A DNA stretch of 64,000 nt from a bacterium (GTDB taxonomy: Bacteria > Verrucomicrobiota > Kiritimatiellia > CAIKKV01 > CAITUY01): positions 1,655-65,654 of the forward strand of contig JBAXPK010000009.1 in NCBI GenBank assembly GCA_037132275.1, written 5' to 3'. Each line of letters opens with the position of its first letter. Within the stretch, counting starts at the first letter, position 1. A model generated the notes under the pieces. The model was given only the letters and a program-made list of their open reading frames with translations. It made no database searches and was not told where the DNA came from. This document shows positions 23,517-39,259 of this stretch, in pieces. The translations under genes and the position numbers were made by a program.

Positions 23517-23759
23517 ATGGCTGTCGCAAAAATTGCTATTTCACTGGAAGAGGACATTCTTGTTGAGCTCGACCGACTTGTGCGGCGGCATATTTTCCCC
23601 AATCGAAGCCGCGCCATTCAGGAGGCGGTAATGGAAAAGGTGACGCGTCTCTCCGCCAACCGTCTTGCGACTGAGTGCGCAAAACTCGATCCCAAGGCGG
23701 AACAGGCCTTGGCTGAGGAAGGAATGTCCAAGGAGGTCGCCTCATGGCCAGAATATTGA
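23517..23759 (+). CDS. Ribbon-helix-helix (CopG-like) antitoxin
   Basis: [35 protein letters not shown] pattern. It overlaps the downstream toxin gene. Confidence 0.75.
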
Positions 23760-24106
23760 GGGGCGACCTCGTCTGGGCTGACCTGAACCCGGTAAAGGGG
23801 CATGAACAGGCCGGGCTCCGCCCGGCACTGATCCTCAGCCCGGAGATATTCAATGATCGCTCCGGAACGGTGATTGCCATGGCGCTCACAAGTCAACCGC
23901 AGAGGGCGGGATTCCCGCTCACCATGGAAATCACAAGCGTTTCCCTCCCGAAGCCGACCTGGGTGAAGATCAGCCAGATCAGAACGCTTTCCGTTGAGCG
24001 ATTGGGCAAGCGAATGGGACATGTTTCTGATGCCGAGATGAGCCAAATCATCGAAGGACTGAATGAAATCATCGGCGAACAAGCAAATTCAGGCTATCGC
24101 CGCTGA
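23744..24106 (+). CDS. mazF: MazF/PemK-family toxin
   Basis: [34 protein letters not shown]. The 3' end lies inside attC-like site C. Confidence 0.85.
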
Positions 24107-24137
24107 GCGCGGCTCAGCCTGATTTGCACCGTTGGGC
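24074..24137 (+). repeat. attC-like site C
   Basis: R'' GGCGAAC, AA, GCAAATTCAGGCT, loop, AGCCTGATTTGC (one T bulged), ACC, R' GTTGGGC (fits GTTRRRY). Confidence 0.6.
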
Positions 24138-24161
24138 CGATCAATGAAAATTGAACACCAC

Positions 24162-24190
24162 TTGACGTAGATACTTAATGTATATACATT
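24162..24190 (+). promoter_or_regulatory. Candidate sigma70-type promoter of the brnTA cassette
   Basis: TTGACG (24162-24167), 17-nt spacer, TACATT (24185-24190). The -10 ends 7 nt before the brnT ATG. Confidence 0.35.
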
Positions 24191-24197
24191 GCTGCCA

Positions 24198-24476
24198 ATG
24201 AAGTTCACATGGGATGAGGAAAAGAATGCGATCAACCGGCAATAACACGGGATCGATTTTGATGACGTCTCGACTGTTTTCGAGAAGCCCATGGTGACGT
24301 TCCTTGACCAGAGGAAAGAGTATGGTGAGGACAGATGGGTGGGAATTGGATGGCTTAGCGACATTCTGGCGGTGATTGTGTTTACCGAGCCCGATGACGA
24401 GACCATCCGGGTTATCTCCGCCCGAAAGGCAAAACGACATGAAGCACACATCTACAAACAAGAAATCAGGAACTGA
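24198..24476 (+). pseudogene. brnT: BrnT (DUF497) toxin gene interrupted by an in-frame TAA at 24243-24245
   Basis: The frame reads MKFTWDEEKNAINRQ*HGIDFDDVSTVFEKPMVTF...IRVISARKAKRHE. The stop replaces the conserved Lys of the N..KHG motif. Confidence 0.75.
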
Positions 24477-24705
24477 CTGGACCCGCCTTCGCGAGATGAA
24501 GGACGAGGACATTGATGTCTCCGATATTCCCGTGATTGACCGATCCATGTTGAAGAAAATGGTCATTCGGATGCCGGAGAAAAAGTCCCCGGTTTCAATC
24601 CGTCTCGATCCCGGTGTGATTGAATGGTTCCGGCGGCAGGGGCAAGGATACCAGACGCGAATCAATGCAGTTCTTAAATCCTATGTTGAGGCGCATTCGC
24701 ATTGA
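24439..24705 (+). CDS. brnA: BrnA-type antitoxin
   Basis: MKHTSTNKKSGTDWTRL..DEDIDVSDIP..VSIRLDPGVIEWFRRQGQGYQTRINAVLKSYV is the BrnA pattern. It overlaps the brnT 3' end. Confidence 0.8.
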   Translation: MKHTSTNKKSGTDWTRLREMKDEDIDVSDIPVIDRSMLKKMVIRMPEKKSPVSIRLDPGVIEWFRRQGQGYQTRINAVLKSYVEAHSH

Positions 24706-24723
24706 TCATCAGATGATGAACCC

Positions 24724-24787
24724 GCCCAACAACTCCTCGGAGAGTTTACGTCGCTAATCGCGCCGAAACTCAAGGTCACCGTTCGGT
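24724..24787 (+). repeat. attC-like site D
   Basis: R'' GCCCAAC (fits RYYYAAC), AA, CTCCTCGGAGAGTTT, loop ACGTCGCTAATCGCGCCG, AAACTCAAGGTCAC, R' GTTCGGT. It is a paralogue of site B. Confidence 0.6.
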
Positions 24788-24806
24788 CTCGCAAATTATG
24801 ATTGAT

Positions 24807-24838
24807 CCACACATGAGAGTGTGTGATGATGTGTGTGG
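24807..24838 (+). promoter_or_regulatory. Inverted-repeat-rich candidate operator upstream of vapB
   Basis: CCACACAT..CACACA-TGAGAG-TGTGTG..ATGTGTGTGG, followed by GGAGGA and the ATG at 24849. Confidence 0.3.
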
Positions 24839-24848
24839 AGGAAATGAT

Positions 24849-25049
24849 ATGGCAACAAACCTACAACTCGATGACAAGCTGATCAAGCAAGCCGTCGCAC
24901 TTGGTTGTCACCGCACAAAGAGGGCGGCGGTGACACAGGCGTTGTCTGACTACATTCGCAACCTTCAGCAGGAGAAGATTCTTGATCTGTTTGGGAAGGT
25001 CGACTTCACCCAGGGATATGACTATAAACGGCAGCGGGCTAAAGCATGA
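24849..25049 (+). CDS. vapB: VapB-family antitoxin
   Basis: MATNLQLDDKLIKQAVALG..TKRAAVTQAL pattern. ATGA overlap with the PIN gene. Confidence 0.75.
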   Translation: MATNLQLDDKLIKQAVALGCHRTKRAAVTQALSDYIRNLQQEKILDLFGKVDFTQGYDYKRQRAKA

Positions 25050-25507
25050 GAGTACTCGTTGATACGAGTATTTGGTCGCTCGCTCTACGCCGGTCAGGGC
25101 ATGTCCAGAATCCGGAAGCTGAGGAGTTGAAGCGCCTGATTGGTTTGCATGTGGTGGAAATCATTGGGCCCATCCGTCAGGAGATCCTCTCTGGGGTGAG
25201 GGAGCAGTCGCAGTTTAATCAACTGGAATCACAACTCGCTGTATTTCCTGATCTGCCACTGCATTCCGAGGACTTCGCGACAGCAGCCAAAATGTTCAAT
25301 GTATGCCGTTCAAAGGGCATTCAGGGTTCAAATACTGATTTCCTGATCTGCGCGGTTGCTGTGCGGTACGATTTTGCAGTCTTCACGACGGATGCCGACT
25401 TTCGTCTTTTCGCCAAGTGCCTGCCCATCGTCATTCATGAATTCAAAACAATGGCCGAACCACACCGTGTTCCGTACGGCTCGCAAGCTCGCCGCCGGAA
25501 ACGGTGA
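25046..25507 (+). CDS. vapC: PIN-domain VapC toxin
   Basis: MRVLVDTSIW..E..TDFLICAVA..FTTDADF acidic PIN residues. The C-terminal tail is encoded inside attC-like site E. Confidence 0.8.
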   Translation: MRVLVDTSIWSLALRRSGHVQNPEAEELKRLIGLHVVEIIGPIRQEILSGVREQSQFNQLESQLAVFPDLPLHSEDFATAAKMFNVCRSKGIQGSNTDFLICAVAVRYDFAVFTTDADFRLFAKCLPIVIHEFKTMAEPHRVPYGSQARRRKR

Positions 25508-25516
25508 CCGTTCGCT
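25454..25516 (+). repeat. attC-like site E
   Basis: R'' GCCGAAC, CAC, ACCGTGTTCCG, loop TACGGCTCGCAAGCTCGCCG, CGGAAACGGT (one G bulged), GAC, R' GTTCGCT. Confidence 0.6.
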
Positions 25517-25576
25517 CAATAAAAGAGGGATTGATAAAATGGGCTAATTTAGAGATAGTACTCGAAGGTGACAAAC

Positions 25577-25783
25577 ATGGTTATGATACATCCAGAATAT
25601 GTGGTTGACGCGCAACAGCATCGAAAGGCTGTCTTATTGCCTGTGGTCGAATGGGAACAGATCGTTGATGAGCTCGAGGAGCTGGATGATATACGAGCTT
25701 ATGACCAGGCGAAGGCTTCCTCTCAGGAAAAGATTCCCTTTGAGCAGGCCGTCCGGGAGATCCGCCTCGGAATCGGCGCATGA
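25577..25783 (+). CDS. Antitoxin partnered with the RelE/ParE toxin (Phd/RelB-like, unclassified)
   Basis: Small acidic protein (..VVEWEQIVDELEELDDIRAYDQAK..). SD GAAGGTG lies upstream of the ATG at 25577. ATGA overlap with the toxin. Confidence 0.65.
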   Translation: MVMIHPEYVVDAQQHRKAVLLPVVEWEQIVDELEELDDIRAYDQAKASSQEKIPFEQAVREIRLGIGA

Positions 25784-26034
25784 GTTACGGGCTTGAAATC
25801 TTACGTGCAGCCCAAAAGCAACTCGCTCAAATTACACCGGTTGATCGAGATCGAATTGTCTCTGCTATCAAGGATTTGGCGGATGCCCCTCGTCCCGCCG
25901 GGTGCAAAAAGCTTTCAGGCCGTCCCGGCTGGCGTATCCGAATAGGCTCTTACCGGGTCATCTATGAGATCCATGATGACAAGTTGATGATACTTGTCGT
26001 CACTGTTGGCCACCGAAGAGAAATATACCGATAG
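25780..26034 (+). CDS. relE: RelE/ParE-family toxin
   Basis: ..KKLSGRPGWRIRIGSYRVIYEIHDDKLMILVVTVGHRREIY is the classic RelE/StbE C-terminus. Confidence 0.85.
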   Translation: MSYGLEILRAAQKQLAQITPVDRDRIVSAIKDLADAPRPAGCKKLSGRPGWRIRIGSYRVIYEIHDDKLMILVVTVGHRREIYR

Positions 26035-27440: not shown

Positions 27441-28835
27441 ATGACTGAACCGGTGTCCGAAAACAAAGAGCAACTTGTCATTGATTTAAATTTTATTCCC
27501 GGATGGGCGCGACGACCGCCCGACGCACGGCCAGCGGGAGGAATGGATAGATTTAATTCCTCCCAGGAGAGCCGGGGCGGCGATTCCAGGAGGCGTGACC
27601 GTCCTGAGCGGTCTGAGCGGCGTTCAGGTGGTGGTGCAAAAAGGCCCGAATTCCGGGATCGCCCGCGCAGCGATTTTGCTCTCCCCGCGCCGAAGCCCGA
27701 TCCTATGGATGAACGTCTGGCCCTGCTGGACGTGACCTTTCTTCCCGAGCGCCGCGGTCTGACACCATTGGCCCATCGGCTGGGGAAATCGGGACGGGCC
27801 TACTCGTTGTTTGAGGTGGCTGCCCTTTTTCTAAGCAAACCGGATTTTTACCTCATCAAGATCGAGGCACCGGCTACCCTTGAAAACTTTTCATTTTGTC
27901 AGTGTGCGGATTGCAAGGCCATCTTCCTTGGCAAAGAGGCTGCCGCCGCCCATGTTTTCGCCAAGCATTTCGAAAAGTTCTGCAAAAAAGAGGATCAGGA
28001 GGCTGAACCTCCGAAGGGAAACTTTGTCTGTATTGCCAAATGCGGCCTGTCGGGTGTCCTGCTAGGCCCGCCGAATTACCATGGCTACAATGACAAGGTG
28101 GCAGAGGTGCATCGTGCCCGATATCCGGATATGCCGATAGAGGCTTACCGGAAACGTATTGAGACGATTCATGATGCGGCCGTGATTGAGCAATGGAAGG
28201 CCGAGATGTGCAAGCAGGCCATTTACCGGTTCGGGGAGGGCGAGAAGGCTGTGACGTTCAGCCGGTTTACCGAGGCCGAGGCTTATTTTCGGGATCACTG
28301 CCTGCCGGGAACGGTCAAGGAGTCGAGGAATGTGGTTGTGCCCGGTGTGATTGCCCATGCGATGGAGCCGGGACCGCTACGCCGGGTAATCGAGGATGTC
28401 TGGCAAAAGGAAAGCCGGTTCCCACTGAAACTTTCGGTCACGCTTCGGTTGGCCTTCCGCCATCTGGGGCTGCACACGTTCAAGGCGGCGGGCGGCTTTA
28501 CGTTTGTCACCTCGGTGGCGCCGAACGCAATTGATCCTGCGCATGCAGTGGAAGGGATCCGGGATATCCTGGATTTTGTTGCCGCCAATCCGGGTTGCTC
28601 GCGGGCAAATCTGCTGTCAAAACTGGTGCCCGAGGCATCCCCCGTGGCCGGGGAGGCTGAGTCGCCGGTAGCGGTAACCATGCCTCCGCGCGAGTCTGAA
28701 CTGCGGCGGCAATTGCAGTGGCTGGTTGAAAAAGGGCATGTGATTGAATTTTCCGACGGGAGCATGGCGGTGCCTGCCACCGCCGTGGCGAGAGTGCAGA
28801 TGGCCCGGCCCAAGGGGAAAAGCCGACGGGAATGA
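27441..28835 (+). CDS. Hypothetical protein with an Arg-rich disordered N-terminus and a C2H2-spaced Cys/His motif
   Basis: 464-aa ORF. It contains RRRDRPERSERRSGGGAKRPEFRDRPR and C-X2-C-X12-H-X4-H at aa 155-176. Confidence 0.6.
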   Translation: MTEPVSENKEQLVIDLNFIPGWARRPPDARPAGGMDRFNSSQESRGGDSRRRDRPERSERRSGGGAKRPEFRDRPRSDFALPAPKPDPMDERLALLDVTFLPERRGLTPLAHRLGKSGRAYSLFEVAALFLSKPDFYLIKIEAPATLENFSFCQCADCKAIFLGKEAAAAHVFAKHFEKFCKKEDQEAEPPKGNFVCIAKCGLSGVLLGPPNYHGYNDKVAEVHRARYPDMPIEAYRKRIETIHDAAVIEQWKAEMCKQAIYRFGEGEKAVTFSRFTEAEAYFRDHCLPGTVKESRNVVVPGVIAHAMEPGPLRRVIEDVWQKESRFPLKLSVTLRLAFRHLGLHTFKAAGGFTFVTSVAPNAIDPAHAVEGIRDILDFVAANPGCSRANLLSKLVPEASPVAGEAESPVAVTMPPRESELRRQLQWLVEKGHVIEFSDGSMAVPATAVARVQMARPKGKSRRE

Positions 28836-28875: not shown

Positions 28876-29664
28876 ATGATCGTGAGCAAGAGTCTTCTGG
28901 CGGGAGTGTGTGTGGGAGTTGTGGGCGGGTTGGCCCTGCCGGTGTTAGCGGCTAATGTTATCACCCTGAAAAACGGGCGGGTCATATCGGCCCCAACCAT
29001 CGAATGGCGCAGTAGTACCGGGGATTATATCGTTGCCGCCGAGGGGGGGGCTGTGCCGATTCCTTTGGCACAGGTGGCTCGTCTGAATATCGAAAGGCCT
29101 GCTGAGTTCGATCAAGCTATTGGACTGGTCAAATCCCGTCTTTTTAGGCAGGCGGTTCCGTTGCTGGAGGGGATTGTCTCAAAGTACAAAATGCTGAATT
29201 GGGACGTGGATGCGGGAAAATGGCTGGTGCAGTGCTATCTGGAGATAAATGATCCCAAGAAACTCGCCACCGCCATGGATGCCTTGGTTGCGGCAGGCGG
29301 CACAGTGCCCAATAATACGCTAATGATGTATTGGAAGATGTTGCAAAAGGCCGGCGATGTTAAAAGGCTCAACCGGGAGATAACCCGAACCCTCGGGACC
29401 GGATCCCCTGATTTTGTCGCTACGGCGTATATGATGAGAGGAAATGCCTACCTGAAAGACGGGGACGAAGCCTCGGCGCTGGCTGACTTTCTGAAAGTGG
29501 TCACCCTGTTCAAGAACGAGAAGGCTGTTCAGCCTGAAGCGTTATTCACTGCGGCTGATTTGTTGGACAAGGCCAAGGATCCGCGTGGCGCAGACCTGCG
29601 AAAGGTGCTCATGCAGGAATACAAGAACAGCGAGTATGCCACCAAGGCAGCGGCCGTGAAGTAA
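28876..29664 (+). CDS. Secreted protein with a helical-repeat (TPR-like) C-terminal domain; paralogue of 33318-34106
   Basis: Signal peptide ..LALPVLAAN. Shared blocks with the paralogue are V(A)R(L/I).I.(R/K)P.EFD.A and QPEAL..A..LLD...DPR...L. Confidence 0.65.
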   Translation: MIVSKSLLAGVCVGVVGGLALPVLAANVITLKNGRVISAPTIEWRSSTGDYIVAAEGGAVPIPLAQVARLNIERPAEFDQAIGLVKSRLFRQAVPLLEGIVSKYKMLNWDVDAGKWLVQCYLEINDPKKLATAMDALVAAGGTVPNNTLMMYWKMLQKAGDVKRLNREITRTLGTGSPDFVATAYMMRGNAYLKDGDEASALADFLKVVTLFKNEKAVQPEALFTAADLLDKAKDPRGADLRKVLMQEYKNSEYATKAAAVK

Positions 29665-29702
29665 GGATTGGCAGGGCGCTCTCACCGTCGAGCGCCGCTA
29701 CG

Positions 29703-30341
29703 TCAGTCGTGGGCGCCGCTCGGTTTATCCTTCGCCAGGCGCTTCATCAGGGCTTTGTAATCCGCCGGCGGGGCAAAGATATCGTCGGGTGTCCCCGGTT
29801 TTGCATCCGGTCCCATGGAGGAGAGCCAGATGGCATCGCTGGTGTTGGAGTACTGGAATGGGTGGCCCCATAAATCGGGGGGCAAGGATTCAAGATAGTA
29901 GCCTTGCCAGCCCTGAACCCCCGGGTTTTGCACCAGTGCCTTGAGCCCTTCCCCGGTGGTGGGGTATCGTCTGCAATGAACCCGGAACCATTCCAGGGCG
30001 GTGTGGATGACCGTAAGTTCCTTCCGGGTTTGAACTATTTTAGTGGGAGGTTGGTAGGGAACCGTGACGGTATTATTACTGCTCAGAACGACTCCGCCCA
30101 CCAGGATGCAGCCGCCCAGAACCCAAACCGCGATACGGGGGTGGCTCATGAAGATCATCCAGATGGGCTTTCGCAATTGATGGGATGCGGGGAGACGCTG
30201 CTGGATGCCTTCCCTTCGGGTTTTGTCCACCTTGAGTGTCTTCCATTTCTCAGGGTGTCGCAGCCCCTTTTTACAACTCGGGCACTGGGATTTCTGAAGG
30301 GCTTCAAAAATGTGATGGCAATGGGGACAGCGATATTTCAT
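29703..30341 (-). CDS. Zinc-ribbon / single-TM protein with a C-terminal GspG-like (type II secretion pseudopilin) domain
   Basis: MKYRCPHCHH..CPSCKK zinc ribbon and TM (IAVWVLGGCILVGGVVL). Then ..YPTTGEGLKALVQNP..WQGYYLESLPPDLWGHPFQY..LSSMGPDAKPGTPDDI, the GspG C-domain pattern. No prepilin leader. Confidence 0.65.
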   Translation of the reverse strand: MKYRCPHCHHIFEALQKSQCPSCKKGLRHPEKWKTLKVDKTRREGIQQRLPASHQLRKPIWMIFMSHPRIAVWVLGGCILVGGVVLSSNNTVTVPYQPPTKIVQTRKELTVIHTALEWFRVHCRRYPTTGEGLKALVQNPGVQGWQGYYLESLPPDLWGHPFQYSNTSDAIWLSSMGPDAKPGTPDDIFAPPADYKALMKRLAKDKPSGAHD

Positions 30342-30463
30342 TTTTTTGCAAATTAAAGAATCAACGGGACTATAGAGTAAGAACACAAGGCAGACAAATC
30401 GAAAGATCAGCAGGGCAGGGTTCTCTTGACGTGACCAAACCTGTTTGATAACAAGGTAAGACC

Positions 30464-33304
30464 ATGGTGACAAATAAGCTCTGCATGTCGGGCCTTCGGG
30501 TGATACGCCGGTTTCTGGCGGGTGCTGTTTTCCTTTTATCCGTATCATCCATTCTGGCCGGGGACGAACAAACCGAGATCCAGAACGAGCTCAAATTTGC
30601 CTCCGAACTGATCAAGGCGAAGTTCCCTGACTATGCCCAGAAGTCCGTGGACAAACTACTCATCAAGTATCCCGCCGCCAAGGCGGAAGCCTCCAGGGTC
30701 CGGATCGAAGTGCTGACATCCCGCGGTAAGTTTGATGAGGCGGAAGCCGTGTTAAAGACCATGCCCCCGGGCACCCCGGAAACCATCGTCATGTATCTGG
30801 CCGTTGGCGACCAGTATTATGCCTTTTCGCGCATGAAGGATGCCCAGAGGATTTATGAGGGGTTCTTTAAGCAATTTCCCAAGGGGCCGCCGGCGGAAGT
30901 GGCTCGGCTCTATGGTGAATCGGCCTACAAATTTTCCCAGATGCTGTTGTTGGTCGGCGATTTGCCTGCCGCGCTGGAGGCTTATCGCCGGGTGTTGACC
31001 TGCCCGTTGAATTCTTCCGAGATCGAGCGCCGGGTAAAAACAGAGATCGCTGAGCTTTGTCTTCGCGTGGCGCAGCTTAATGAGACCCCCGCAGCCAAGA
31101 AGAAGGATCTTCTGGCCGAAGCCTTGAAACTGTGCAATGAGGTTCAGTGGTCGGGAACGGATCTCTGGTTTGCCAAGACCCTGGTGATTATGGCCCATAT
31201 CCACATGGTGAACGGCGATCCGTCCCGTGCCCGCAAGGTGCTTACGGATTACATGGGCATGTTGAGCGATGTTGACAAGATGCTGCGGGAATCCAAGGAG
31301 TCGAGCAAACTCAGTCCGATGGCCGAGTGCAAGTTCCTGCTTGGAACCCTGTGCGAGGATGAGGCGAGGGCGCTGATGAGCGACAAAACAAAGGATCCTG
31401 AAACCATCAAGCTCTTCGCCCAGGCCATGAGTCAGTTCTATACCGTTGCCCAGAACTATCCTGGTAGCACATGGGCGCCGGAAGCTCGCCGTCGTGCCGA
31501 TGGCATCGCCGATATGCTCGAGACTGATTATGGGAAAACCGTGAAGCGTCCGGAACGTAATAACACCCAGATGGTCTCCGAGCAGTTGAAGGAGGCGCGG
31601 GTGCTTTTCCAGAATCAGGAATTCAAGGCGTCTGCGGAAAAATATATCGAAGTTCTGAACATGGCGGATGATTTCAAGGGGGCTCCCTGGGCGGTCAGCG
31701 AATTGGCGCGCAGTTATATTGAGCTCAACGATGCTCCTTATGCGCAGGCGATGACCGGATTTCTTGCGGAACGTTACAGCCAGACCACCAATCGTTATGA
31801 AGAAGGAGGGAATGCGCTGCTGGCGGTCGCCGTCGCCTATGATGAGCGTAAGGCCCAGCCGAAGGCGGATGCCGTGTATGATCTGTTTTTTGCCAATTAT
31901 CCCGACCATTCCAAAGCCCCCGCCATTCTGTTCCGCCAGGGGGAGGTGGCGCTCCGGCTGACCAACTACGTCGCCGCCCTGAAGAACTATCAGAGAATTG
32001 TGGAGACGTATCCCCGGAACCGGGCCTATCCTGATGCGCTGAGCCGGGCGGGTTATTGCCTGTCCATGCTGGGCGATCACACGAATGCCATCCCGATGTT
32101 GACTAATTATATCGCCCAGGTTTTCTCAGGCGCCGAAATGGTCACCTCAAGGCTGAGATTGGCTGACGAATATCGGCAGGCGAATATGATCGTTCCCGCG
32201 CTGAATGAATATGCCCGGCTCCTCAAGCTCATCGCGCAGGATTCTGCCAAGTATTCCGAGACCCCGGAGGATGTGGCGCGGGTTAAACGCGCCACTGAGT
32301 TTGCGCTTTATTCCAAGGCCCAGTGCTATTCCCGGTTGCGCGACCCGGCCGATCAGATCCCGTCTTATCAACAGAAAGCTGTTGAGGGCTACGAACTCTT
32401 TATGAAGGACTTTCCCAAATCAGAACTGGCTCCAGCGGCCCTGGGCGCCATGGGAACGCTGAATTATCTGATGAATAAGGCGGATGTGGCGGGGAAGTGT
32501 TTTGAACGCCTGAAGGCCGATTATCCCAATAGCGTACAAGCTTTGGATACGGTGTTTGTCCGGGCGGATGCGCTGATGTCGATGGGCGACGTGCAAAAGG
32601 CCGTTGTGGTGTTTGGCGAGATGCTGAAGAGCCCCCAATCGTTTAAGCCCACCCAGTTCCTGCGTGCCGGCCGGGTGTTATTGGAGGCTCAGGAATATGA
32701 TGTCGCCAAGGGGCTTTTTGCCGAGGCGATAAAAACGCAGGATGTGCCGCTCTGGCAGGCGGCGTCGCTGGGTTATGGACAGGCGCTCGTCGGAGCGGCT
32801 GACTATGAGGCGGCGATCGGGGTGTATACAAACTTTTTAGGTAAGTACGCGAAATCCGGGTATGTGATTGAAGTCAATCTGTCCTTGAGCCGGGCATACG
32901 CCGAGATGGGTAAGAAGATGCCCGAGGCCCAGAAGGCAAAACCTTATTTTGACAAGGCGTATGGGGCCATGGGCAAAGTGCGCCAATATGCCCGGGATCC
33001 GGAATTGCTGGTCAGGGCGGACCTTGAAATGGCGGCAATTCAACTCCTGCAGGGCGACAAAATGGGCGCCATGGCGTCCTACATGAAGATTCTTCTGTTC
33101 ACGGATCCTTCCAATCAGAAAGTGCGTCCCCTTGTGGAGCAGGCCTTTGACAATGCACTGCCTTTGATGAAGGATCTGGGCCGATATCAGGATATGGTGG
33201 AAGCGTGCGAAACCTACCTGAAACAGTTCCCGACAGGGCGGCTTGTGATCAAGGCGCGGCAGGGGCGAGATGAGGCAAAGGCCCGGCTGGCAACCGGAAG
33301 GTAA
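30464..33304 (+). CDS. Large secreted tetratricopeptide-repeat protein (946 aa)
   Basis: N-terminal hydrophobic signal. TPR-like A..Y..A......P..A motifs recur throughout. Confidence 0.75.
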   Translation: MVTNKLCMSGLRVIRRFLAGAVFLLSVSSILAGDEQTEIQNELKFASELIKAKFPDYAQKSVDKLLIKYPAAKAEASRVRIEVLTSRGKFDEAEAVLKTMPPGTPETIVMYLAVGDQYYAFSRMKDAQRIYEGFFKQFPKGPPAEVARLYGESAYKFSQMLLLVGDLPAALEAYRRVLTCPLNSSEIERRVKTEIAELCLRVAQLNETPAAKKKDLLAEALKLCNEVQWSGTDLWFAKTLVIMAHIHMVNGDPSRARKVLTDYMGMLSDVDKMLRESKESSKLSPMAECKFLLGTLCEDEARALMSDKTKDPETIKLFAQAMSQFYTVAQNYPGSTWAPEARRRADGIADMLETDYGKTVKRPERNNTQMVSEQLKEARVLFQNQEFKASAEKYIEVLNMADDFKGAPWAVSELARSYIELNDAPYAQAMTGFLAERYSQTTNRYEEGGNALLAVAVAYDERKAQPKADAVYDLFFANYPDHSKAPAILFRQGEVALRLTNYVAALKNYQRIVETYPRNRAYPDALSRAGYCLSMLGDHTNAIPMLTNYIAQVFSGAEMVTSRLRLADEYRQANMIVPALNEYARLLKLIAQDSAKYSETPEDVARVKRATEFALYSKAQCYSRLRDPADQIPSYQQKAVEGYELFMKDFPKSELAPAALGAMGTLNYLMNKADVAGKCFERLKADYPNSVQALDTVFVRADALMSMGDVQKAVVVFGEMLKSPQSFKPTQFLRAGRVLLEAQEYDVAKGLFAEAIKTQDVPLWQAASLGYGQALVGAADYEAAIGVYTNFLGKYAKSGYVIEVNLSLSRAYAEMGKKMPEAQKAKPYFDKAYGAMGKVRQYARDPELLVRADLEMAAIQLLQGDKMGAMASYMKILLFTDPSNQKVRPLVEQAFDNALPLMKDLGRYQDMVEACETYLKQFPTGRLVIKARQGRDEAKARLATGR

Positions 33305-33317
33305 GGATCGGGATATC

Positions 33318-34106
33318 ATGAAGCACAAGTTCATAGTGATGGGGGTTGGCGTGCTGGGTGTTATCTTGGCGACTGCCGGATTCGCAAAGGCGGAGTCGGT
33401 AAACAAGCACGATGGAACGGAAGTCCGCGGCAATAAAGTCAAGTGGTTCGCGGTTCGCCAGGAGTATCAGGTTGAAGATGCCGAAGGGTCCATCATTACC
33501 ATTCCCGTCGATGACGTGGCCTCGGTTCGGATTACCAAGCCGGTTGAGTTTGACAAGGCGGCACAGGCCTGCGACGCCAAGCAGTATGATGTGGCGATTC
33601 CGATCCTGGAGGATCTGATCAGCCGTTACAAGAGACTGGAGTGGGATGGTAAGGCCAGTGAACTGCTGGCCAAGGCCTGTTTCGGGAAAGGGGATTATAA
33701 AAAGGCGGCCCAGGTCATGGGGGGGATCATTGAGGGAACCCCGAAATCGTTGGTTACCGATGATCAGAATGCCCTTTACTGGAGTGCCCTGTTGAACGCT
33801 CAGATGATGGCGGTACTGAAGAAAAATCTCAACGAAGCGATTGCCGGCGAGTCGAGATCCCTCGCGGCCCTGGCCTTGATCCGGCGCGGTGAGATGAATA
33901 AGGAGGATGGCAAACGGGAGGATGCGGTGCTGGATTTTCTTCGCGTTATCCTGGTGTACGACGATATCCTCCAGGTACAACCGGAAGCCCTCTATAAAGG
34001 GGCCAAGTTACTCGATGAGATGCGGGATCCCCGGGCAGATGAATTGAAGAAGAGGTTGACGTCACGCTATTCCGACAGCCCCTATGCGAGGAAGCTGGGC
34101 GGATGA
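33318..34106 (+). CDS. Secreted protein, paralogue of 28876-29664
   Basis: Signal peptide MKHKFIVMGVGVLGVILATAGFAKA and the same conserved blocks as 28876-29664. Confidence 0.65.
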   Translation: MKHKFIVMGVGVLGVILATAGFAKAESVNKHDGTEVRGNKVKWFAVRQEYQVEDAEGSIITIPVDDVASVRITKPVEFDKAAQACDAKQYDVAIPILEDLISRYKRLEWDGKASELLAKACFGKGDYKKAAQVMGGIIEGTPKSLVTDDQNALYWSALLNAQMMAVLKKNLNEAIAGESRSLAALALIRRGEMNKEDGKREDAVLDFLRVILVYDDILQVQPEALYKGAKLLDEMRDPRADELKKRLTSRYSDSPYARKLGG

Positions 34107-34148
34107 GATTGGGAATTGGGTAGCTAACTTAGCAAGGAGAACAAAACG

Positions 34149-34991
34149 ATGAAAAAAGCGGTATGGTTGGGTCTGGCAATGGCGGTTTTTGGTGTGTTTG
34201 TTTCGACGCAGTGGGCCAAGGCCCAGGGCGCGGCGGCGGGCGGTGGGGCGGCTCCAGCTGCAGCCGTTGCGGCGACTCCGGCAACAGCGGCTCCTTCGGG
34301 TATGGTGGTGACGGATGAAGGCGCCACAAAACCGGAGAAGCATAGCAGTGGCGGATTCATCGAAATCGTCACCCGTGCCGGTTGGTTCGGTATGGTGATC
34401 TGGCTTATGCTGATCGTGTGTTCCATCATCAGTGTGGCCTTGATTGTAGACTCATTCGTCAATATCAAGGACGTCAAAATCATGCCTCCCCATCTGATTG
34501 ATAATGTTCGGACGGCCATGGAGCAGGGCGACCTGTTGAAGGCGATCCAGCATTGCGACGGCGCCCCGGGGGCGCTGGCCAACATTCTGAAGGCGGGATT
34601 TGCCCAGGTTGAGGAAGGGTATGAAGTCGTTCAAGACGCCGTGGGCGTTGCAGCGGATCTGGAAAGCGAAAAATTGCTCAGCCGCGTGACCTATCTCAGC
34701 GTGATTTCAAATACCACTCCGATGCTGGGACTGATCGGTACGGTTCAAGGAATGATCATGGCGTTTTATACGATGGGCACCATGGAGGCGGGCGCCGCCC
34801 AGCAGTCCATGCTCGCGGTGAACATCTCGCACGGGTTGTGGGCGACGGCCGTCGGTCTGGGAACCGCCGTGCCGGCGACGATTTTCTTCTACTATTTCAA
34901 GAATCGTGCCATGAACAGCATTTTGCGCATGGAAGCCCTGACGCTGGACCTGATCAAGGCCCTCCGCAATGTCGAAGTGGTGTCGGAGTAA
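34149..34991 (+). CDS. exbB: MotA/TolQ/ExbB-family proton channel with an Ala-rich N-terminal periplasmic extension
   Basis: Signal peptide plus Ala/Pro-rich segment, then three TM helices with ..TPMLGLIGTVQGMIMAF... Confidence 0.85.
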   Translation: MKKAVWLGLAMAVFGVFVSTQWAKAQGAAAGGGAAPAAAVAATPATAAPSGMVVTDEGATKPEKHSSGGFIEIVTRAGWFGMVIWLMLIVCSIISVALIVDSFVNIKDVKIMPPHLIDNVRTAMEQGDLLKAIQHCDGAPGALANILKAGFAQVEEGYEVVQDAVGVAADLESEKLLSRVTYLSVISNTTPMLGLIGTVQGMIMAFYTMGTMEAGAAQQSMLAVNISHGLWATAVGLGTAVPATIFFYYFKNRAMNSILRMEALTLDLIKALRNVEVVSE

Positions 34992-35014
34992 GCCGGTATT
35001 AGAGGTGACAACCT

Positions 35015-35434
35015 ATGCGTCAGAAACGAGAGGAAGAATATCTTAACGGCAACTTGACGGCCATGATTGACGTGGTCTTTCAGTTGATCATTTTCTTTGT
35101 CTGCACCACCAACCTTCAGGATAAGGCCATTGACGACCGGATCAAACTCGCCATGGCCCCCAATGGAAAAGTGGAAACGAGGAAGAATCCCTACGAGGTA
35201 AAGGTCTATGTCGCCGAAAAGGGAGGGCTTTCTATAGCCCGTACGCCCCTGTCGGCCGACATGCTGACGATCATCCTGAAGAAATCCAGGGCGGACGCGA
35301 GAGGCAATGAGGTTCCTGTACTGATTATGGCGGATGCCCGGGCGAAACATAGCGCTGTCAAAAAGGCCATGGATGCCTGTACAGCGGCCGGTATCTGGAA
35401 AATCAAATTTACCGCACTTAAAGAAAAGGCCTGA
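35015..35434 (+). CDS. exbD: ExbD/TolR-family protein
   Basis: ..LNGNLTAMIDVVFQLIIFFV.. is the conserved Asp-containing TM helix. Confidence 0.85.
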   Translation: MRQKREEEYLNGNLTAMIDVVFQLIIFFVCTTNLQDKAIDDRIKLAMAPNGKVETRKNPYEVKVYVAEKGGLSIARTPLSADMLTIILKKSRADARGNEVPVLIMADARAKHSAVKKAMDACTAAGIWKIKFTALKEKA

Positions 35435-35450
35435 TTGGCTGAAGGGTGTT

Positions 35451-35864
35451 ATGGCTAGAAAACGAAGACGAAATTCATTTCAGGCGGGTGAATTGAACCT
35501 GACCGCCATGATTGATGTGGCCTTCCAGTTGCTGGCGTTCTTCATCCTCACGGCGAAGCCGGTGGATGTGATCACCAATCTGGATGTCTTTCGCCCCATG
35601 GCGGAGAAGGCGTCACAGGAACAATCCCCGGCCAAGGTGATCCGGGTAACAGTGTTCCCCGATGGGTTTACGATTAACGATCGGGCTGTGGACAGCAAAG
35701 GGTTGAGCGCACTTCTTGGAAAACTGGCTGATTTGGACAAAACTCAGACCGTTCTCATCCAGTGCCTCAATGAGTCCCCGCACGGCAAGTTGATTGAGTT
35801 ATTGGATCTCTGCGCGAAGCTGAAGCTGACCAATCTTTCTGTGATCAGTTCTGGTGGAGCCTGA
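35451..35864 (+). CDS. exbD: ExbD/TolR-family protein (second copy)
   Basis: ..ELNLTAMIDVAFQLLAFFIL... ATG at 35451 is preferred over the upstream overlapping start. Confidence 0.85.
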   Translation: MARKRRRNSFQAGELNLTAMIDVAFQLLAFFILTAKPVDVITNLDVFRPMAEKASQEQSPAKVIRVTVFPDGFTINDRAVDSKGLSALLGKLADLDKTQTVLIQCLNESPHGKLIELLDLCAKLKLTNLSVISSGGA

Positions 35865-35959
35865 CGGAAGGATTACTTCCGGTTTTTTTGTAATGTTTTG
35901 CTATTTGCAGGTAATAGGCCATAGGTGAGACTAACCCGGTTTTCAGGAGTGCTATAAAC

Positions 35960-37465
35960 ATGGATGTAAACCACATCAAGAGGCTGATCAAGGAGCATGT
36001 CTGGGGCCCCGTGGGGTCAGTCATCGTGCATGTTGTCATTGTGACGATGCTGGTGGTATTTGCGGTGGCACCGCAGTCCCAGGTGGCGCCGGAAGTTGAA
36101 GTCAACATGATGGAAACCAAGGCCGATGTGTTGGAGGAGGTGTTGAAGACTGAGGTTAAGCCTGAAACCCCGCCTCCTGAAAAGGATGTCGATGTGGATC
36201 GGCCGGATTCGGCGACGACCAGCACGATGGATGTTCCTTCCGATGCCCCCGGCAGCGGGATGGGCAATGCCGAGGGAGCAGGGATTGGTAGCGGGGATCC
36301 TTCCCTGGCAGCCGGTTTTGAGGTGGCTATGGCCAAGAGCCCCCTCGTCATGAGGGGTTTATATGCCACACGGACGGCGGGCGGACGGGGTGGGGCGCTC
36401 AGTGCCTTTGGTGGAACCAAACGCGGCGAAGATGCTGTGATGCGCGCCTTGCGTTGGTTAAAGGCCAAGCAGGACGAGGACGGATCATGGAAGACTGTGG
36501 ATCAAGCGTATCCGGATCACGCGCCCGCGATGGCCGGCCTGGCCCTTTTGTGTTTTCTGGCCCATGGGGAAACGCCGGCTTCGCCGGAGTTCGGTCAGAC
36601 GGTCGAAAGAGCCATGAAATATATTGTCAGCAAGCAGGGTCCGAACGGCGGGTTCGGTGAAAAGCCATTCAGCGACCATGGGACCTATGAACATGGCATC
36701 TGCACATATGCCATCGCGGAAGGCTTTGGTCTAACCAAAATCATGGCGTTGAAGGAGGCCATGGACAAGGGAATCCAGATAATCATCAACGGGCAGCAGG
36801 CCTGTGGCGGGTATGACTATGCCTACAAGGCAGAGCCGCGCTGGGATATGTCTGTGACGGGTTGGCAGTTGCAAGCCATGAAGGCGGCCAAAATGGCGGG
36901 TTGTTCCAACGAAAAACTGGAAGAGTCCATTACCAAGGCGATCGATTTTCTTCGTAAGATCAATATTCCCGGTCAGGGAGGGTTTGGGTATAGCGGAAAT
37001 AATGGTGCTCCGGACTCGAAATCGACGCCTTCCATGACCGGCGCCGCCACATTGTGTCTTCAGTTGTTGGGCAAACCTGATTGCAAGGAGGTCAAGAACG
37101 GCTTGAAATGGCTCAATGACAATCCTGTTACCGTGGAGTGGGAGAAAGGCGACGGCGGCAAGCATGCTGTGTATGCTTGGTACTATATCACGCAGGCCAA
37201 GTTCCAAAAGGGCGGTCCTGACTGGAAGGCGTGGAACACCATGTTTTCCACAGCCCTGATCAAGGGGCAGATCATTGAGGGGAAGTTGGGGCACTGGGAG
37301 GGTGGCGATAGCGGGTGGGCCTCGGGGATCGTCTATACCACCACGCTGAGCTGCCTGATGCTGGAAGTCTACTATCGCTATCTGCCTACCTTCCAACATG
37401 TTGAAAACGCTCCGGATGCCCCCGTCGCCGCTAAGTCGGATGACGTGGTGGTGGAAGTGAAGTAA
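35960..37465 (+). CDS. Membrane-anchored protein with a prenyltransferase/squalene-cyclase-type alpha/alpha-toroid repeat domain, at the tonB position
   Basis: One N-terminal TM, then an acidic Pro-containing linker. Repeats follow: ALRWLKAKQDEDGSW, AMKYIVSKQGPNGGFG, NGQQACGGYDY, AIDFLRKINIPGQGGFGY. Confidence 0.65.
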   Translation: MDVNHIKRLIKEHVWGPVGSVIVHVVIVTMLVVFAVAPQSQVAPEVEVNMMETKADVLEEVLKTEVKPETPPPEKDVDVDRPDSATTSTMDVPSDAPGSGMGNAEGAGIGSGDPSLAAGFEVAMAKSPLVMRGLYATRTAGGRGGALSAFGGTKRGEDAVMRALRWLKAKQDEDGSWKTVDQAYPDHAPAMAGLALLCFLAHGETPASPEFGQTVERAMKYIVSKQGPNGGFGEKPFSDHGTYEHGICTYAIAEGFGLTKIMALKEAMDKGIQIIINGQQACGGYDYAYKAEPRWDMSVTGWQLQAMKAAKMAGCSNEKLEESITKAIDFLRKINIPGQGGFGYSGNNGAPDSKSTPSMTGAATLCLQLLGKPDCKEVKNGLKWLNDNPVTVEWEKGDGGKHAVYAWYYITQAKFQKGGPDWKAWNTMFSTALIKGQIIEGKLGHWEGGDSGWASGIVYTTTLSCLMLEVYYRYLPTFQHVENAPDAPVAAKSDDVVVEVK

Positions 37466-37471
37466 TCGCGG

Positions 37472-39259
37472 ATGAGCGAAGGCGGGCACATACGGCTTCT
37501 TCCCACCGATGTGGCTAATAAAATCGCGGCGGGAGAGGTCGTTGAGCGTCCTGCCTCCGTTCTCAAGGAAGTCCTCGAAAACGCCATTGATGCCGGCGCC
37601 ACTCAAATTGATGTCGAGATTGTAGCTGGCGGAACCCGCCTTGTTTCGGTGGCCGACAACGGATCCGGCATGAATCGCGATGACGCCCTTCTCGCCATTG
37701 AGAGGCATGCCACCAGTAAAATCTACACGGTGGCGGACATTGAGCACATTCACACCCTGGGTTTCCGCGGGGAGGCGCTTGCCGCCATCTCCTCGGTTTC
37801 ACGCTTCCGTTTTCAAACCCGGCGGCATGATGAGTTGGCCGGGACGGAATTGGTCGTCAGCGGAGGAAAACTGCTCGACGTGAAGGATGCCGGCTGTCCG
37901 CCCGGCACCCTCTTTGAGGTTCGCGACCTTTTTTTTAATATTCCCGTGCGCCGGAAATTCCTGAGGTCCCCCCAGACAGAAACCGTGCATGTGAGGCAGA
38001 TGTTTCTACTGCAAGCATTGGCGTGGCCGGCGGTGGGGATGAGTTTGACTCTGGATGGCCGGCGCGCCTGGTCCTTGGCTTCCGGCTCTACCCCGCTGGA
38101 ACGGATTCGTGAACTGTTCGGGAAGGATCTCGTGGAAAAGTTGTGCCCGGTGACGAAGCCTTCCGGAGAAGTTAGGATTTCGGGCTTTGTCAGCCTCCCA
38201 GAGCTGACCCGTGGCGACAGGACGGAGCAGTATGTTTTTGTAAACGGACGCCCTGCCACGGCCCCCGTGGTAAATTATGCCCTTGGTGAAGCCTTTCATG
38301 CCTTGATTGCCGAGGGGCGGCATCCTTATGTTTTTTTGTATCTGGAGACGGATCCGGAACTAGTTGATGTGAACGTACATCCCACCAAGAAGGAAGTCCG
38401 CTTCCGGAATCCCTCCGAGGTGCGGGATGCGATTATTGGCGCGATCCGCTCGGCTTTGTCGGGTGCGGGATCCGCATTTGTGGCAGGGCAGGGATCGGGG
38501 CCTGAGGGTCCCTTGGACGGAGATCAAAAGGTCATCCTGCCCACCCTTCAAATTGATGATCTTCCCGTGTCACGCGTGTTTTCGTATCCACGCCTGCCGC
38601 CTCAGGAAGTGAGGCCTATCGTGATGCCGGGCAGGGCCACGCCCGACCTTTTGGCGGCCGCTCCCGTGCAGAAGGGACCGTGGACATGGTGTCGTGTGAT
38701 CGGGCAAATAGGCGGGCTCTATGTGCTGCTCGAAACCGGGGATGGTTACGTCGTCATGGATCCCCACGCGGCCCACGAGCGGGTCTTGTTTGAAAAAATC
38801 CTGAACTCACTGGAGCATGGGCGTGTGGAAAGTCAGGGACTACTGGCGCCGACGACGGTTGAGTTGCAGCCCCGTGATGCGCTCTTCGTTCGCAAGAATC
38901 TAGATGTGATCAAGAAGATGGGGATTGGAGTGGCGGAGTTTGGGGGCGATACCTTTGTTGTGGATGCGTTGCCGCAAGGGATGGAAGAATTGGATATCAA
39001 GGAGTTGCTGATTGATATGGCGCATCATCTTGAAACCCTTGGCGAGCGGGGTAGTCATACCCGCTGGCGTGAAGAGGCCATTGCGCAGGCAGCCTGTAAG
39101 GCGGCCGTGAAGGCCCGTGACCGGTTGAGCCTGCTGGAAGTGGAACAACTGGTTATTGACCTGGCCTCGGCCGAGATGCCCTATACCTGCCCCCATGGCC
39201 GCCCGACTTTAATCTATACCTCATTCAAGGAACTTGCCCGCAAGTTCGGACGGGAATAA
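37472..39259 (+). CDS. mutL: DNA mismatch repair protein MutL
   Basis: [35 protein letters not shown] and the GFRGEAL motif. Confidence 0.95.
   Translation: [595 protein letters not shown]

Follow-up and report, generated by a model that had tools for sequence, protein, structure and literature searches.

To our knowledge, Ton and Tol are the only well-understood routes by which energy is delivered to the outer envelope of Gram-negative bacteria, and both share one C-terminal fold. Transducers with a different head were described in 2025 in Molecular Biology and Evolution (PMC12204202). Starting from Tichowtungia, a species of the Kiritimatiellota without discernible TolA or TonB, its authors found bitopic proteins in which an SHLS transmembrane helix and a motor box are joined by a disordered linker to a head of the vWA type. 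Their genes are located downstream of a tetratricopeptide repeat (TPR) gene, tolQ and two heterologous tolR genes in bacteria of the Planctomycetes-Verrucomicrobia-Chlamydiae (PVC) group. In Fibrobacter succinogenes the genes FSU_2396-2403, which are up-regulated on cellulose, encode OmpA and two TPR proteins, followed by ExbB, two proteins with an ExbD domain and, as the last, a TonB family protein. Furthermore, the MUL1 locus of Akkermansia muciniphila (Amuc_0543-0548) carries ExbB and ExbD genes beside mul1A and mul1B, and according to citing papers it is required for the intracellular accumulation of mucin products (Davey et al. 2023). Its annotation table lists Amuc_0546 as ExbD/TolR and Amuc_0548 as ExbB, and MUL1B is reported to be restricted to gut Akkermansia. 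Here we analyzed a cluster of eight genes, named A to H, in a stretch of 64,000 nucleotides (the window) of a bacterium of the Kiritimatiellia (contig JBAXPK010000009.1, positions 1,655 to 65,654). The cluster contains one ExbB-like gene and two ExbD-like genes, which are followed by gene H, encoding a 501-aa protein with a toroid domain.

The genes C to H are best explained as one operon-like unit which encodes a motor driven by the proton-motive force (PMF) together with its periplasmic output. By analogy with Ton and Tol, and with a probability of roughly 60%, H would be a force transducer of the TonB/TolA class which is coupled to the motor of E, F and G and carries a swapped head. An initial annotation of the window had proposed the toroid protein as the energised output in the place of TonB. 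The conserved slot of the gene, the lack of TonB_C and the docking motifs of the TonB/TolA type speak for this proposal; the coupling itself we infer.

An AlphaFold2 model of H based on 76 homologues (mean predicted local distance difference test, pLDDT, of 80) comprises a pair of N-terminal helices including the transmembrane helix, a disordered stretch from residue 45 to 133, a helical barrel from residue 140 to 470 and a C-terminal tail of low confidence (Table 1). The model and the Pfam matches bear out the single N-terminal transmembrane helix, the acidic Pro-containing linker and the toroid domain noticed initially in the protein after the ExbD genes. The linker contains 11 Pro and 18 Asp or Glu in 103 residues, and around its end the residues P128, L134, R138 and R143 are invariant in the family. 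Invariant polar residues of the barrel are H202, E254, D296, K308 and R473, accompanied by several Tyr and Trp.

No TonB_C match was obtained for H with Pfam at E ≤ 0.1. The hidden Markov model check of positions 35960–37465 gave SQHop_cyclase_C and Prenyltrans, which agrees with the initial statement that a TonB C-terminal domain is absent, and in the model the chain ends in an all-helical barrel and a tail of 25 residues. Scans of Pfam and NCBIfam likewise gave no TolA-like match.

Judged by the model, the reading of the C-terminal domain as a toroid is correct. Foldseek against the PDB retrieved only generic (alpha/alpha)6 barrels, namely AprG, GH76 mannanases, AGE epimerases, single-domain squalene-hopene cyclase (SHC) and the TED domains of complement, at a TM-score of about 0.65 of target length and 10–18% identity. 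When the family profile was compared with the PDB, the match to SHC was confined to residues 158–247, the region of the QW motif, and on the SHC model TIGR01787 H reached 43.5 bits against a cutoff of 322.7. A function of the barrel as cyclase or in thioester chemistry was rejected, since a check of the H sequence revealed no DxDD, DDxxD or thioester motif and the second domain is absent; a function as prenyltransferase is not supported either.

The N-terminus of H was compared with the docking elements of the known transducers. The SHLS motif consists of S16, H20, L27 and S31 in TonB and of S18, H22, L29 and S33 in TolA, as given in the relevant sections of PMC12204202 and PMC10907165. Just after the membrane anchor follows the Pro-flanked D-box with the pattern hydrophobic-polar-hydrophobic-polar-hydrophobic-hydrophobic-polar; the D-box of TonB, ISVTMVT, is captured by the ExbD dimer through strand addition (PMC10907165). 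The transmembrane helix of H, WGPVGSVIVHVVIVTMLVVFAV, reads S20-x3-H24-x6-L31-x3-A35, and in 29 diverse N-termini of the family the only invariant positions are G, P, G, S and H. Eight residues past the helix lies P43-E-V-E-V-N-M-M-E51, in which V45 to E51 is an exact fit to the published D-box pattern. A strict regular expression for this pattern matched 51 of the 104 family members with the His-type helix, 49 of these at one fixed offset, compared with 7% of shuffled regions at any position. Additionally, the N-terminal profile of H was aligned by hhalign with the N-termini of E. coli TonB and TolA, both reference sequences having been entered by hand. Ser and His of H were placed in register with S16/H20 of TonB and S18/H22 of TolA, and simultaneously the D-box-like strand with ISVTMV of TonB and IDAVMV of TolA. 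The likeness of the N-terminal module to TonB and TolA is a correspondence at the level of motifs, homology being unproven.

The C-terminal tail of the toroid family has the consensus S-D-D-V-V-V-D-V-[LKI]-COOH, and the strict pattern was present in 96 of 149 complete C-termini. A search with the 62-position N-terminal profile of H against 1.84 billion representative proteins gave 106 matches, mostly toroid proteins or fragments. Four sister proteins of 377–411 aa (P0168, P0199, P0220 and P0221) share the H-like transmembrane helix with Ser and His, the D-box-like strand, the acidic linker and the LV...Y..(K)R segment before the head. Their head differs from the toroid and gave a weak PA14 match in two of the four proteins. 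The C-termini (..NTDIHVDVI, ..ENDVSVIIR, ..KDEVSIEII and ..PDEVSIIIE) nevertheless form a tail of the type D-[DE]-V-x-[VI]-x-[VI]. The profile retrieved toroid and PA14-like proteins, and no vWA domain was found among those of its matches of atypical length that were checked. The context of the sister genes P0221 and P0168 was examined (family loci L082-L085), and no motor gene was nearby.

Sharing of the N-terminal module and the tail with a PA14-like head indicates a modular transducer chassis, as far as the sequences tell. Since both ends are conserved while the middle is swapped, the ends are probably docking elements and the middle an exchangeable ligand-binding head. This argues for an N-terminus that would dock to the motor and a C-terminal strand that would dock to a partner. 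In its order of acidic and then alternating hydrophobic residues the tail may resemble a Ton box or a C-terminal peptide of the kind bound by TPR proteins.

A scan of one genome per GTDB species for relatives of H gave at least 590 matches, of which the best 79 loci were analyzed (numbered with the prefix L); in the protein database more than 1,600 homologues of H were found. Of the best 79 loci, those with named records all belong to PVC bacteria, namely Kiritimatiellia, Lentisphaeria, Victivallales, Opitutia, Spartobacteria and Methylacidiphilum. The closest loci among the matches listed were from metagenome-assembled genomes of Kiritimatiellia/Verrucomicrobiota with 65–72% identity. As informative we considered the 55 loci with at least 3 kb upstream of H, in which the proteins of the window were searched against all open reading frames (ORFs).

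H was located directly after ExbD in 33 of the 55 informative loci, mostly with gaps of 12–150 bp, and was preceded by the full set of C, D (or A), E, F and G in 30. The conserved order covers Kiritimatiellia, Lentisphaeria, Victivallales, Opitutia and Spartobacteria, so that a neighbourhood conserved across PVC classes, a point left to be checked by the initial annotation, was found. Of the 33 motor-linked loci, 30 have C upstream of the motor, and C is conserved as a pair with D. In a relative with 67% identity the gene calls were in identical order, and the cultured Pontiella sulfatireligans F21 (L049) carries C-A-E-F-G-H. Tandem duplicates of H were frequent, with up to four copies. No vWA gene was seen after the second ExbD gene where H was displaced (L041) or after the second motor in L003 and L007.

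The ExbB-ExbD-ExbD-H-mutL block of L007 (4474-13794) is present twice with identical scores and with a truncated second mutL, which resembles an artefact of assembly more than a biological duplication.

Gene A was present in L003 and stands in for D in L022, L040, L049 and L062, and B was conserved only in L001, L003, L005 and L007 among the loci compared. Upstream of A an ORF of 464 aa (window 27441-28835) with an Arg/Ser-rich N-terminus and without Pfam family was found, which lies beside the cluster in L003 and L007 only. Since they are limited to close relatives, A, B and the 464-aa gene are, by this distribution, peripheral and outside the core of the system. The GspG/TPR gene cluster, initially described as the setting of the motor, is real in its genes and domains, whereas its members B and A do not belong to the core.

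The eight genes and their domains were recovered at the initially assigned positions by the ORF list and the Pfam and NCBIfam matches (Table 1). Long ORFs, significant domain matches and conserved synteny show that these genes are not chance features. From C to H the genes are tightly spaced, with gaps of 13, 42, 23, 16 and 95 bp, respectively. D consists of a beta-rich N-terminal segment followed by TPR repeats and shares 32% identity with A (E = 3e-40); the two are true paralogues, as had been supposed. E carries a signal peptide and, ahead of the first transmembrane helix, the Ala-rich periplasmic extension already noticed in the sequence. F and G are divergent paralogues with 29% identity, and both have kept the transmembrane Asp (..AMIDV..). 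The counterpart of G in relatives has 137 aa, which fits the probable start at 35451. No TonB-dependent transporter was found among the cluster genes in the Pfam scan.

Table 1. Positions in the window of the cluster genes and of the segments of H
Feature	Position	Strand	Remarks
A: small periplasmic TPR protein, 262 aa, signal peptide	28876..29664	+	weak TPR matches in Pfam/NCBIfam
B: Zn-ribbon, transmembrane helix, GspG-like globular protein	29703..30338	-	T2SSG PF08334 4.9e-19; Zn_ribbon_8 3.5e-5
C: 946-aa periplasmic all-TPR protein, first gene of the conserved core	30464..33304	+	many TPR families; CpoB/YbgF- and BamD-like repeats
D: small periplasmic protein, 262 aa from MKHKF	33318..34106	+	TPR/YfiO-like, BamD-like; ORF start 33270
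E: ExbB/TolQ-like stator subunit	34149..34991	+	MotA_ExbB PF01618 6e-23
F: ExbD/TolR-like subunit 1	35015..35434	+	ExbD PF02472 1.8e-19; transmembrane Asp in NLTAMIDVVFQ
G: ExbD/TolR-like subunit 2	35451..35864	+	ExbD PF02472 6.1e-17; ORF start 35334, probable start MARKRRRN
H: 501-aa bitopic protein, putative force transducer	35960..37465	+	SQHop_cyclase_C 1.8e-14; Prenyltrans 2.5e-6
H, transmembrane helix, residues 17-36	36008..36067	+	AlphaFold2 helix; S20-x3-H24-x6-L31(-x3-A35)
H, D-box-like strand, residues 45-51, VEVNMME, P43 ahead	36092..36112	+	published D-box pattern
H, linker, residues 52-139, acidic, Pro-containing, disordered	36113..36376	+	pLDDT <50 over 45-133; ends in SPLVMRGLY..R
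H, (alpha/alpha)6 barrel, residues 140-470	36377..37369	+	pLDDT >90; QW motif Q171..G175.W177
H, C-terminal tail, residues 493-501, SDDVVVEVK-COOH, strand-like	37436..37462	+	family consensus

The ORF of B runs to 30548, and its likely start is M71 (MKYRCPHC, 30338), resulting in a protein of 211 aa compared with 206 aa for the called gene of a relative. On the model of the GspG major pseudopilin (TIGR01710) B reached 59 bits against a cutoff of 88.85. Neither an N_methyl match in Pfam nor a G-F-T-L-I-E motif in the sequence was found; instead, a cytoplasmic Zn ribbon precedes the transmembrane helix. B as a prepilin or GspG major pseudopilin was rejected, because the GspG globular domain is present but the prepilin cleavage/methylation motif is absent. 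In L007 (13498-16843, minus strand) a B-like protein of 220 aa with Zn ribbon, transmembrane helix and T2SSG domain is encoded immediately ahead of a short ExbB of 208 aa and one ExbD on the same strand, behind a 514-aa protein without Pfam match, and a similar ExbB-ExbD pair follows mutL in L003. This suggests that GspG-domain proteins of the B type have a motor of their own.

A terminator-like hairpin (window 35865-35881, plus strand) with a 6-bp stem followed by GTTTTTTTGT was found directly after the stop of the second ExbD gene, 80 bp before H. In the scan for such sites 21 were found compared with 14.4 expected. The T-run was partly kept in L001 and L005, the stem was not; as the stem is not conserved in relatives, the hairpin was rejected as a part of the system.

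Downstream of H the genes for MutL, a phosphatase and a topoisomerase were found, and mutL starts 6 bp past the stop of H (window 37465-37472). Adjacency of mutL to H or to the cluster was also observed at L001, L003-L005, L011, L014, L016-L018, L022, L023, L029, L035, L036, L040, L045, L046, L048, L052, L055, L065, L072 and L080. This unusually deep synteny spans Kiritimatiellia, Lentisphaeria, Victivallales and Opitutia and has no obvious functional link. Upstream of the cluster, a stretch of low GC content (window 23744-26034; 0.50 compared with about 0.57) carries a row of type II toxin-antitoxin genes, which encode a PemK/MazF toxin, a BrnA antitoxin, VapB with a PIN toxin and a ParE toxin.

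Following the known motors, the proposed mechanism would be as follows. E would build the ring of the stator, which would enclose the divergent ExbD paralogues F and G as a heterodimer, giving a motor of the 5:2 type. The transmembrane helix of H would dock outside the ExbB ring via the face of Ser20, His24 and Leu31, as TonB and TolA do, and the strand V45-E51, just outside the membrane, would be captured between the periplasmic domains of F and G like the D-box of TonB. Motor action would then pull on the acidic, Pro-containing linker of about 90 residues. This linker would bear a ligand-binding (alpha/alpha)6 barrel and the conserved beta-strand tail in replacement of TonB_C or TolA domain III, and barrel, tail or both would grip a partner in the periplasm or the outer membrane. 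As this partner or its scaffold we would consider first of all the co-conserved TPR proteins C and D, and it is their co-conservation on which the candidate role as scaffold is based.

Several observations weigh against H as a motor-coupled transducer. The fourth position of the SHLS motif is Ala (A35) instead of Ser, and the strict D-box pattern is present in merely about half of the His-type members. The hhalign comparisons with TonB and TolA gave P-values of 0.006 and 0.003 and probabilities of 6–12%, and the 62-residue N-terminal profile gave zero matches among all PDB sequences at E ≤ 10, the chains of TonB and TolA included. A second subtype of the transmembrane helix lacks the His (YAKxQxxRLxxPxxAxxVP), has a longer cytoplasmic N-terminus and is also found directly 3' of the second ExbD gene; the His is therefore not obligatory for linkage to the motor. 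In 22 of the 55 informative loci H was an orphan without a motor nearby. Finally, a canonical TonB may be encoded elsewhere in the genome, outside the 64-kb window.

The idea that the transmembrane His tracks adjacency to the motor was rejected, as His-type and His-less proteins both follow the second ExbD gene and His-type orphans are common. Orphan toroid paralogues were found beside the platform gene T2SSF (L024 8299-9528) and beside N-methyl pseudopilin or DUF1559 and DUF1552 genes (L032 11498-12514; L064 11467-12105; L071 7067-8461). Their adjacency to type II secretion system (T2SS) and pseudopilin genes may be due to chance, such genes being common in PVC genomes.

An analogue of Tol-Pal is unlikely, and it is the alternative that survives best. 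Here the cluster would be the PVC stand-in for TolQ-TolR-TolA-CpoB, with H for TolA and C and D for CpoB, and would serve the stabilisation of the outer membrane and the constriction at division rather than uptake. The best NCBIfam models were indeed TolQ for E (93.9 bits) and TolR for F and G (32 and 30 bits), but these scores are far under the curated cutoffs of 221 and 127 bits, and E is below the cutoffs of the curated ExbB equivalog models as well. On the tol_pal_ybgF model TIGR02795 C lies above the cutoff (120 compared with 90 bits), yet this score is a sum over six repeated stretches of generic TPR. The sole PDB sequence match of C is CpoB (6g5s, E = 8e-7), a protein of about 260 aa compared with the 946 aa of C. 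The motor cluster appears to be single-copy and among housekeeping genes, next to mutL across classes, and in L001 genes for an OmpA protein resembling Pal and a PD40 protein resembling TolB are located about 9 kb away; in the window itself no tolB or pal gene was found. A representative of the Kiritimatiellota is moreover reported to lack discernible TolA and TonB, as given in the section on vWA transducers of PMC12204202. Against a Tol-Pal analogue stand also the many paralogues of H per genome, including tandems of up to four and orphans, and the alternative head, which resemble uptake by multiple TonB proteins more than a single TolA.

A distinctly improbable reading is that H is not coupled to the motor at all. 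It would then be an anchored periplasmic enzyme or binder, for example of glycan or isoprenoid, which merely shares the operon, and a TonB/TolA-like protein from another place in the genome would serve the motor. Most structural neighbours of the barrel are enzymes (AprG, GH76, AGE epimerases and SHC), and many polar and aromatic residues of the barrel are invariant. The orphans at 22 of 55 loci fit as well, but copies without a motor are just as common a trait of paralogues of TonB. Statistical homology of the N-terminus to TonB or TolA was not obtained. An unrelated anchored enzyme would have no reason to retain TonB-type transmembrane and D-box motifs. The conservation of these docking motifs and the constant place of the gene, right after the second ExbD across distant classes, make an uncoupled H less likely. 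The long disordered tether, the absence of DxDD, DDxxD and thioester motifs and the occurrence of the N-terminal module and the tail on the non-enzymatic PA14-like head point in the same direction.

It is very improbable that the motor and H energise or anchor a pseudopilus-based device for polymer capture in the manner of a T2SS or type IV pilus with B as the pseudopilin-like part: the GspG domain of B, the B-like gene which in L007 stands first in an operon, ahead of one short ExbB and one ExbD gene, T2SS or pseudopilin neighbours at three of five orphan H loci examined (T2SSF in L024; N_methyl pseudopilins in L032 and L064) and the dependence of mucin import in Akkermansia on a pilus locus as well as on a locus with ExbBD, as related in citing text, are opposed by the occurrence of B only in close relatives and on the opposite strand, the absence of the prepilin motif from B, the lack of a secretin, ATPase or platform gene in the cluster and the abundance of pseudopilin genes in PVC genomes, by which adjacency may be chance.

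Returning to H as a motor-coupled transducer, our preferred guess for its output is that polymers, either of the envelope or from outside, would be handled or imported independently of TonB-dependent transporters, in analogy to Akkermansia MUL1 and the TPR-ExbBD cluster of Fibrobacter. For polymer uptake as a possible role speak the large number of paralogous heads, the variant with a PA14-like domain and these two parallels. A wider picture, which we consider fairly improbable in its entirety, would be that PVC bacteria without classical TonB or TolA use modular "grapples" driven by PMF motors, in which one TonB-like chassis carries barrel, PA14-like and possibly vWA heads and a universal D-D-V-x-V-x-V tail reaches into the co-conserved TPR proteins or an outer-membrane partner. 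Such grapples would power a "selfish" import of polymers into an enlarged periplasm, independent of TonB-dependent transporters, and would stand behind, for example, the MUL1-dependent uptake of mucin.

What is exchanged in the transducer proposed here is the working end: the chassis that would dock to the motor is retained, and its end is an (alpha/alpha)6 barrel or, in the sister family, a PA14-like domain. Both heads would extend the very recent idea that 5:2 motors drive diverse periplasmic outputs. The phyla concerned, Kiritimatiellota, Lentisphaerota and Verrucomicrobiota, are poorly understood in their polymer uptake and envelope biology. The system offers defined parts for testing, namely His24, the strand 45-51, the C-terminal tail and the TPR partner proteins, and a cultured carrier in Pontiella sulfatireligans F21. 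With definite residues to test, candidates for the partner and a host in culture, it is of real interest to research on Ton/Tol and on the envelope of PVC bacteria.

Compared with the Ton system, the cluster shares the MotA_ExbB stator, ExbD with the transmembrane Asp and multiple paralogous partners per genome, and H shares the S-x3-H-x6-L transmembrane helix, the D-box-like strand and the Pro-containing periplasmic linker. It differs in the lack of TonB_C in H and of a TonB-dependent transporter in the cluster and in the presence of two different ExbD genes. In addition, the linker of H is acidic and no Pro-Glu/Pro-Lys rod, and the fourth SHLS residue is Ala. With Tol-Pal it has in common the best stator models (TolQ/TolR), a periplasmic TPR protein with CpoB-like repeats and the housekeeping setting, whereas H lacks the helix of TolA domain II as well as domain III, the operon lacks tolB-pal, paralogues of H are many and the stator proteins score under the curated TolQ and TolR cutoffs. 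The toroids of SHC and prenyltransferases resemble H in the QW-type motif, in Pfam and PDB profile matches over about 90-120 residues and in the helical barrel. In contrast to the two-domain SHC, H has a single barrel, lacks DxDD/DDxxD and bears a periplasmic tether, and the TM-score between them is about 0.3-0.65 at 10-18% identity.

Among the two loci with similar gene sets, MUL1 also belongs to a PVC bacterium and carries ExbB and ExbD genes, but its gene order is different, as compared by annotation and citing text; homology of both systems is a lead and not a result. By annotated gene order, FSU_2396-2403 of Fibrobacter follows the same TPR-TPR-ExbB-ExbD-ExbD-transducer logic, whereas its last gene is annotated as TonB family and the phylum is another one.

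The closest description, as far as the section on them in PMC12204202 goes, is that of the vWA-headed transducers, from the same phylum. Both systems share the TPR-tolQ-tolR-tolR layout, the SHLS-type helix, the disordered linker and a globular head other than TonB. In this section a toroid-headed type is not mentioned, and our full-text literature searches found no description of a toroid-headed partner of ExbB/ExbD. The initial claim of an uncharacterised PMF-driven envelope system holds in this respect, whereas the layout itself was precedented in 2025 with the vWA head. The head of H is an (alpha/alpha)6 barrel with matches to Pfam toroid families only and not a vWA/Rossmann fold, and H has a conserved C-terminal strand tail. 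New here are the toroid head, its PA14-like sister and the tail shared by both, while the kind of system, first described in 2025, is not categorically new.

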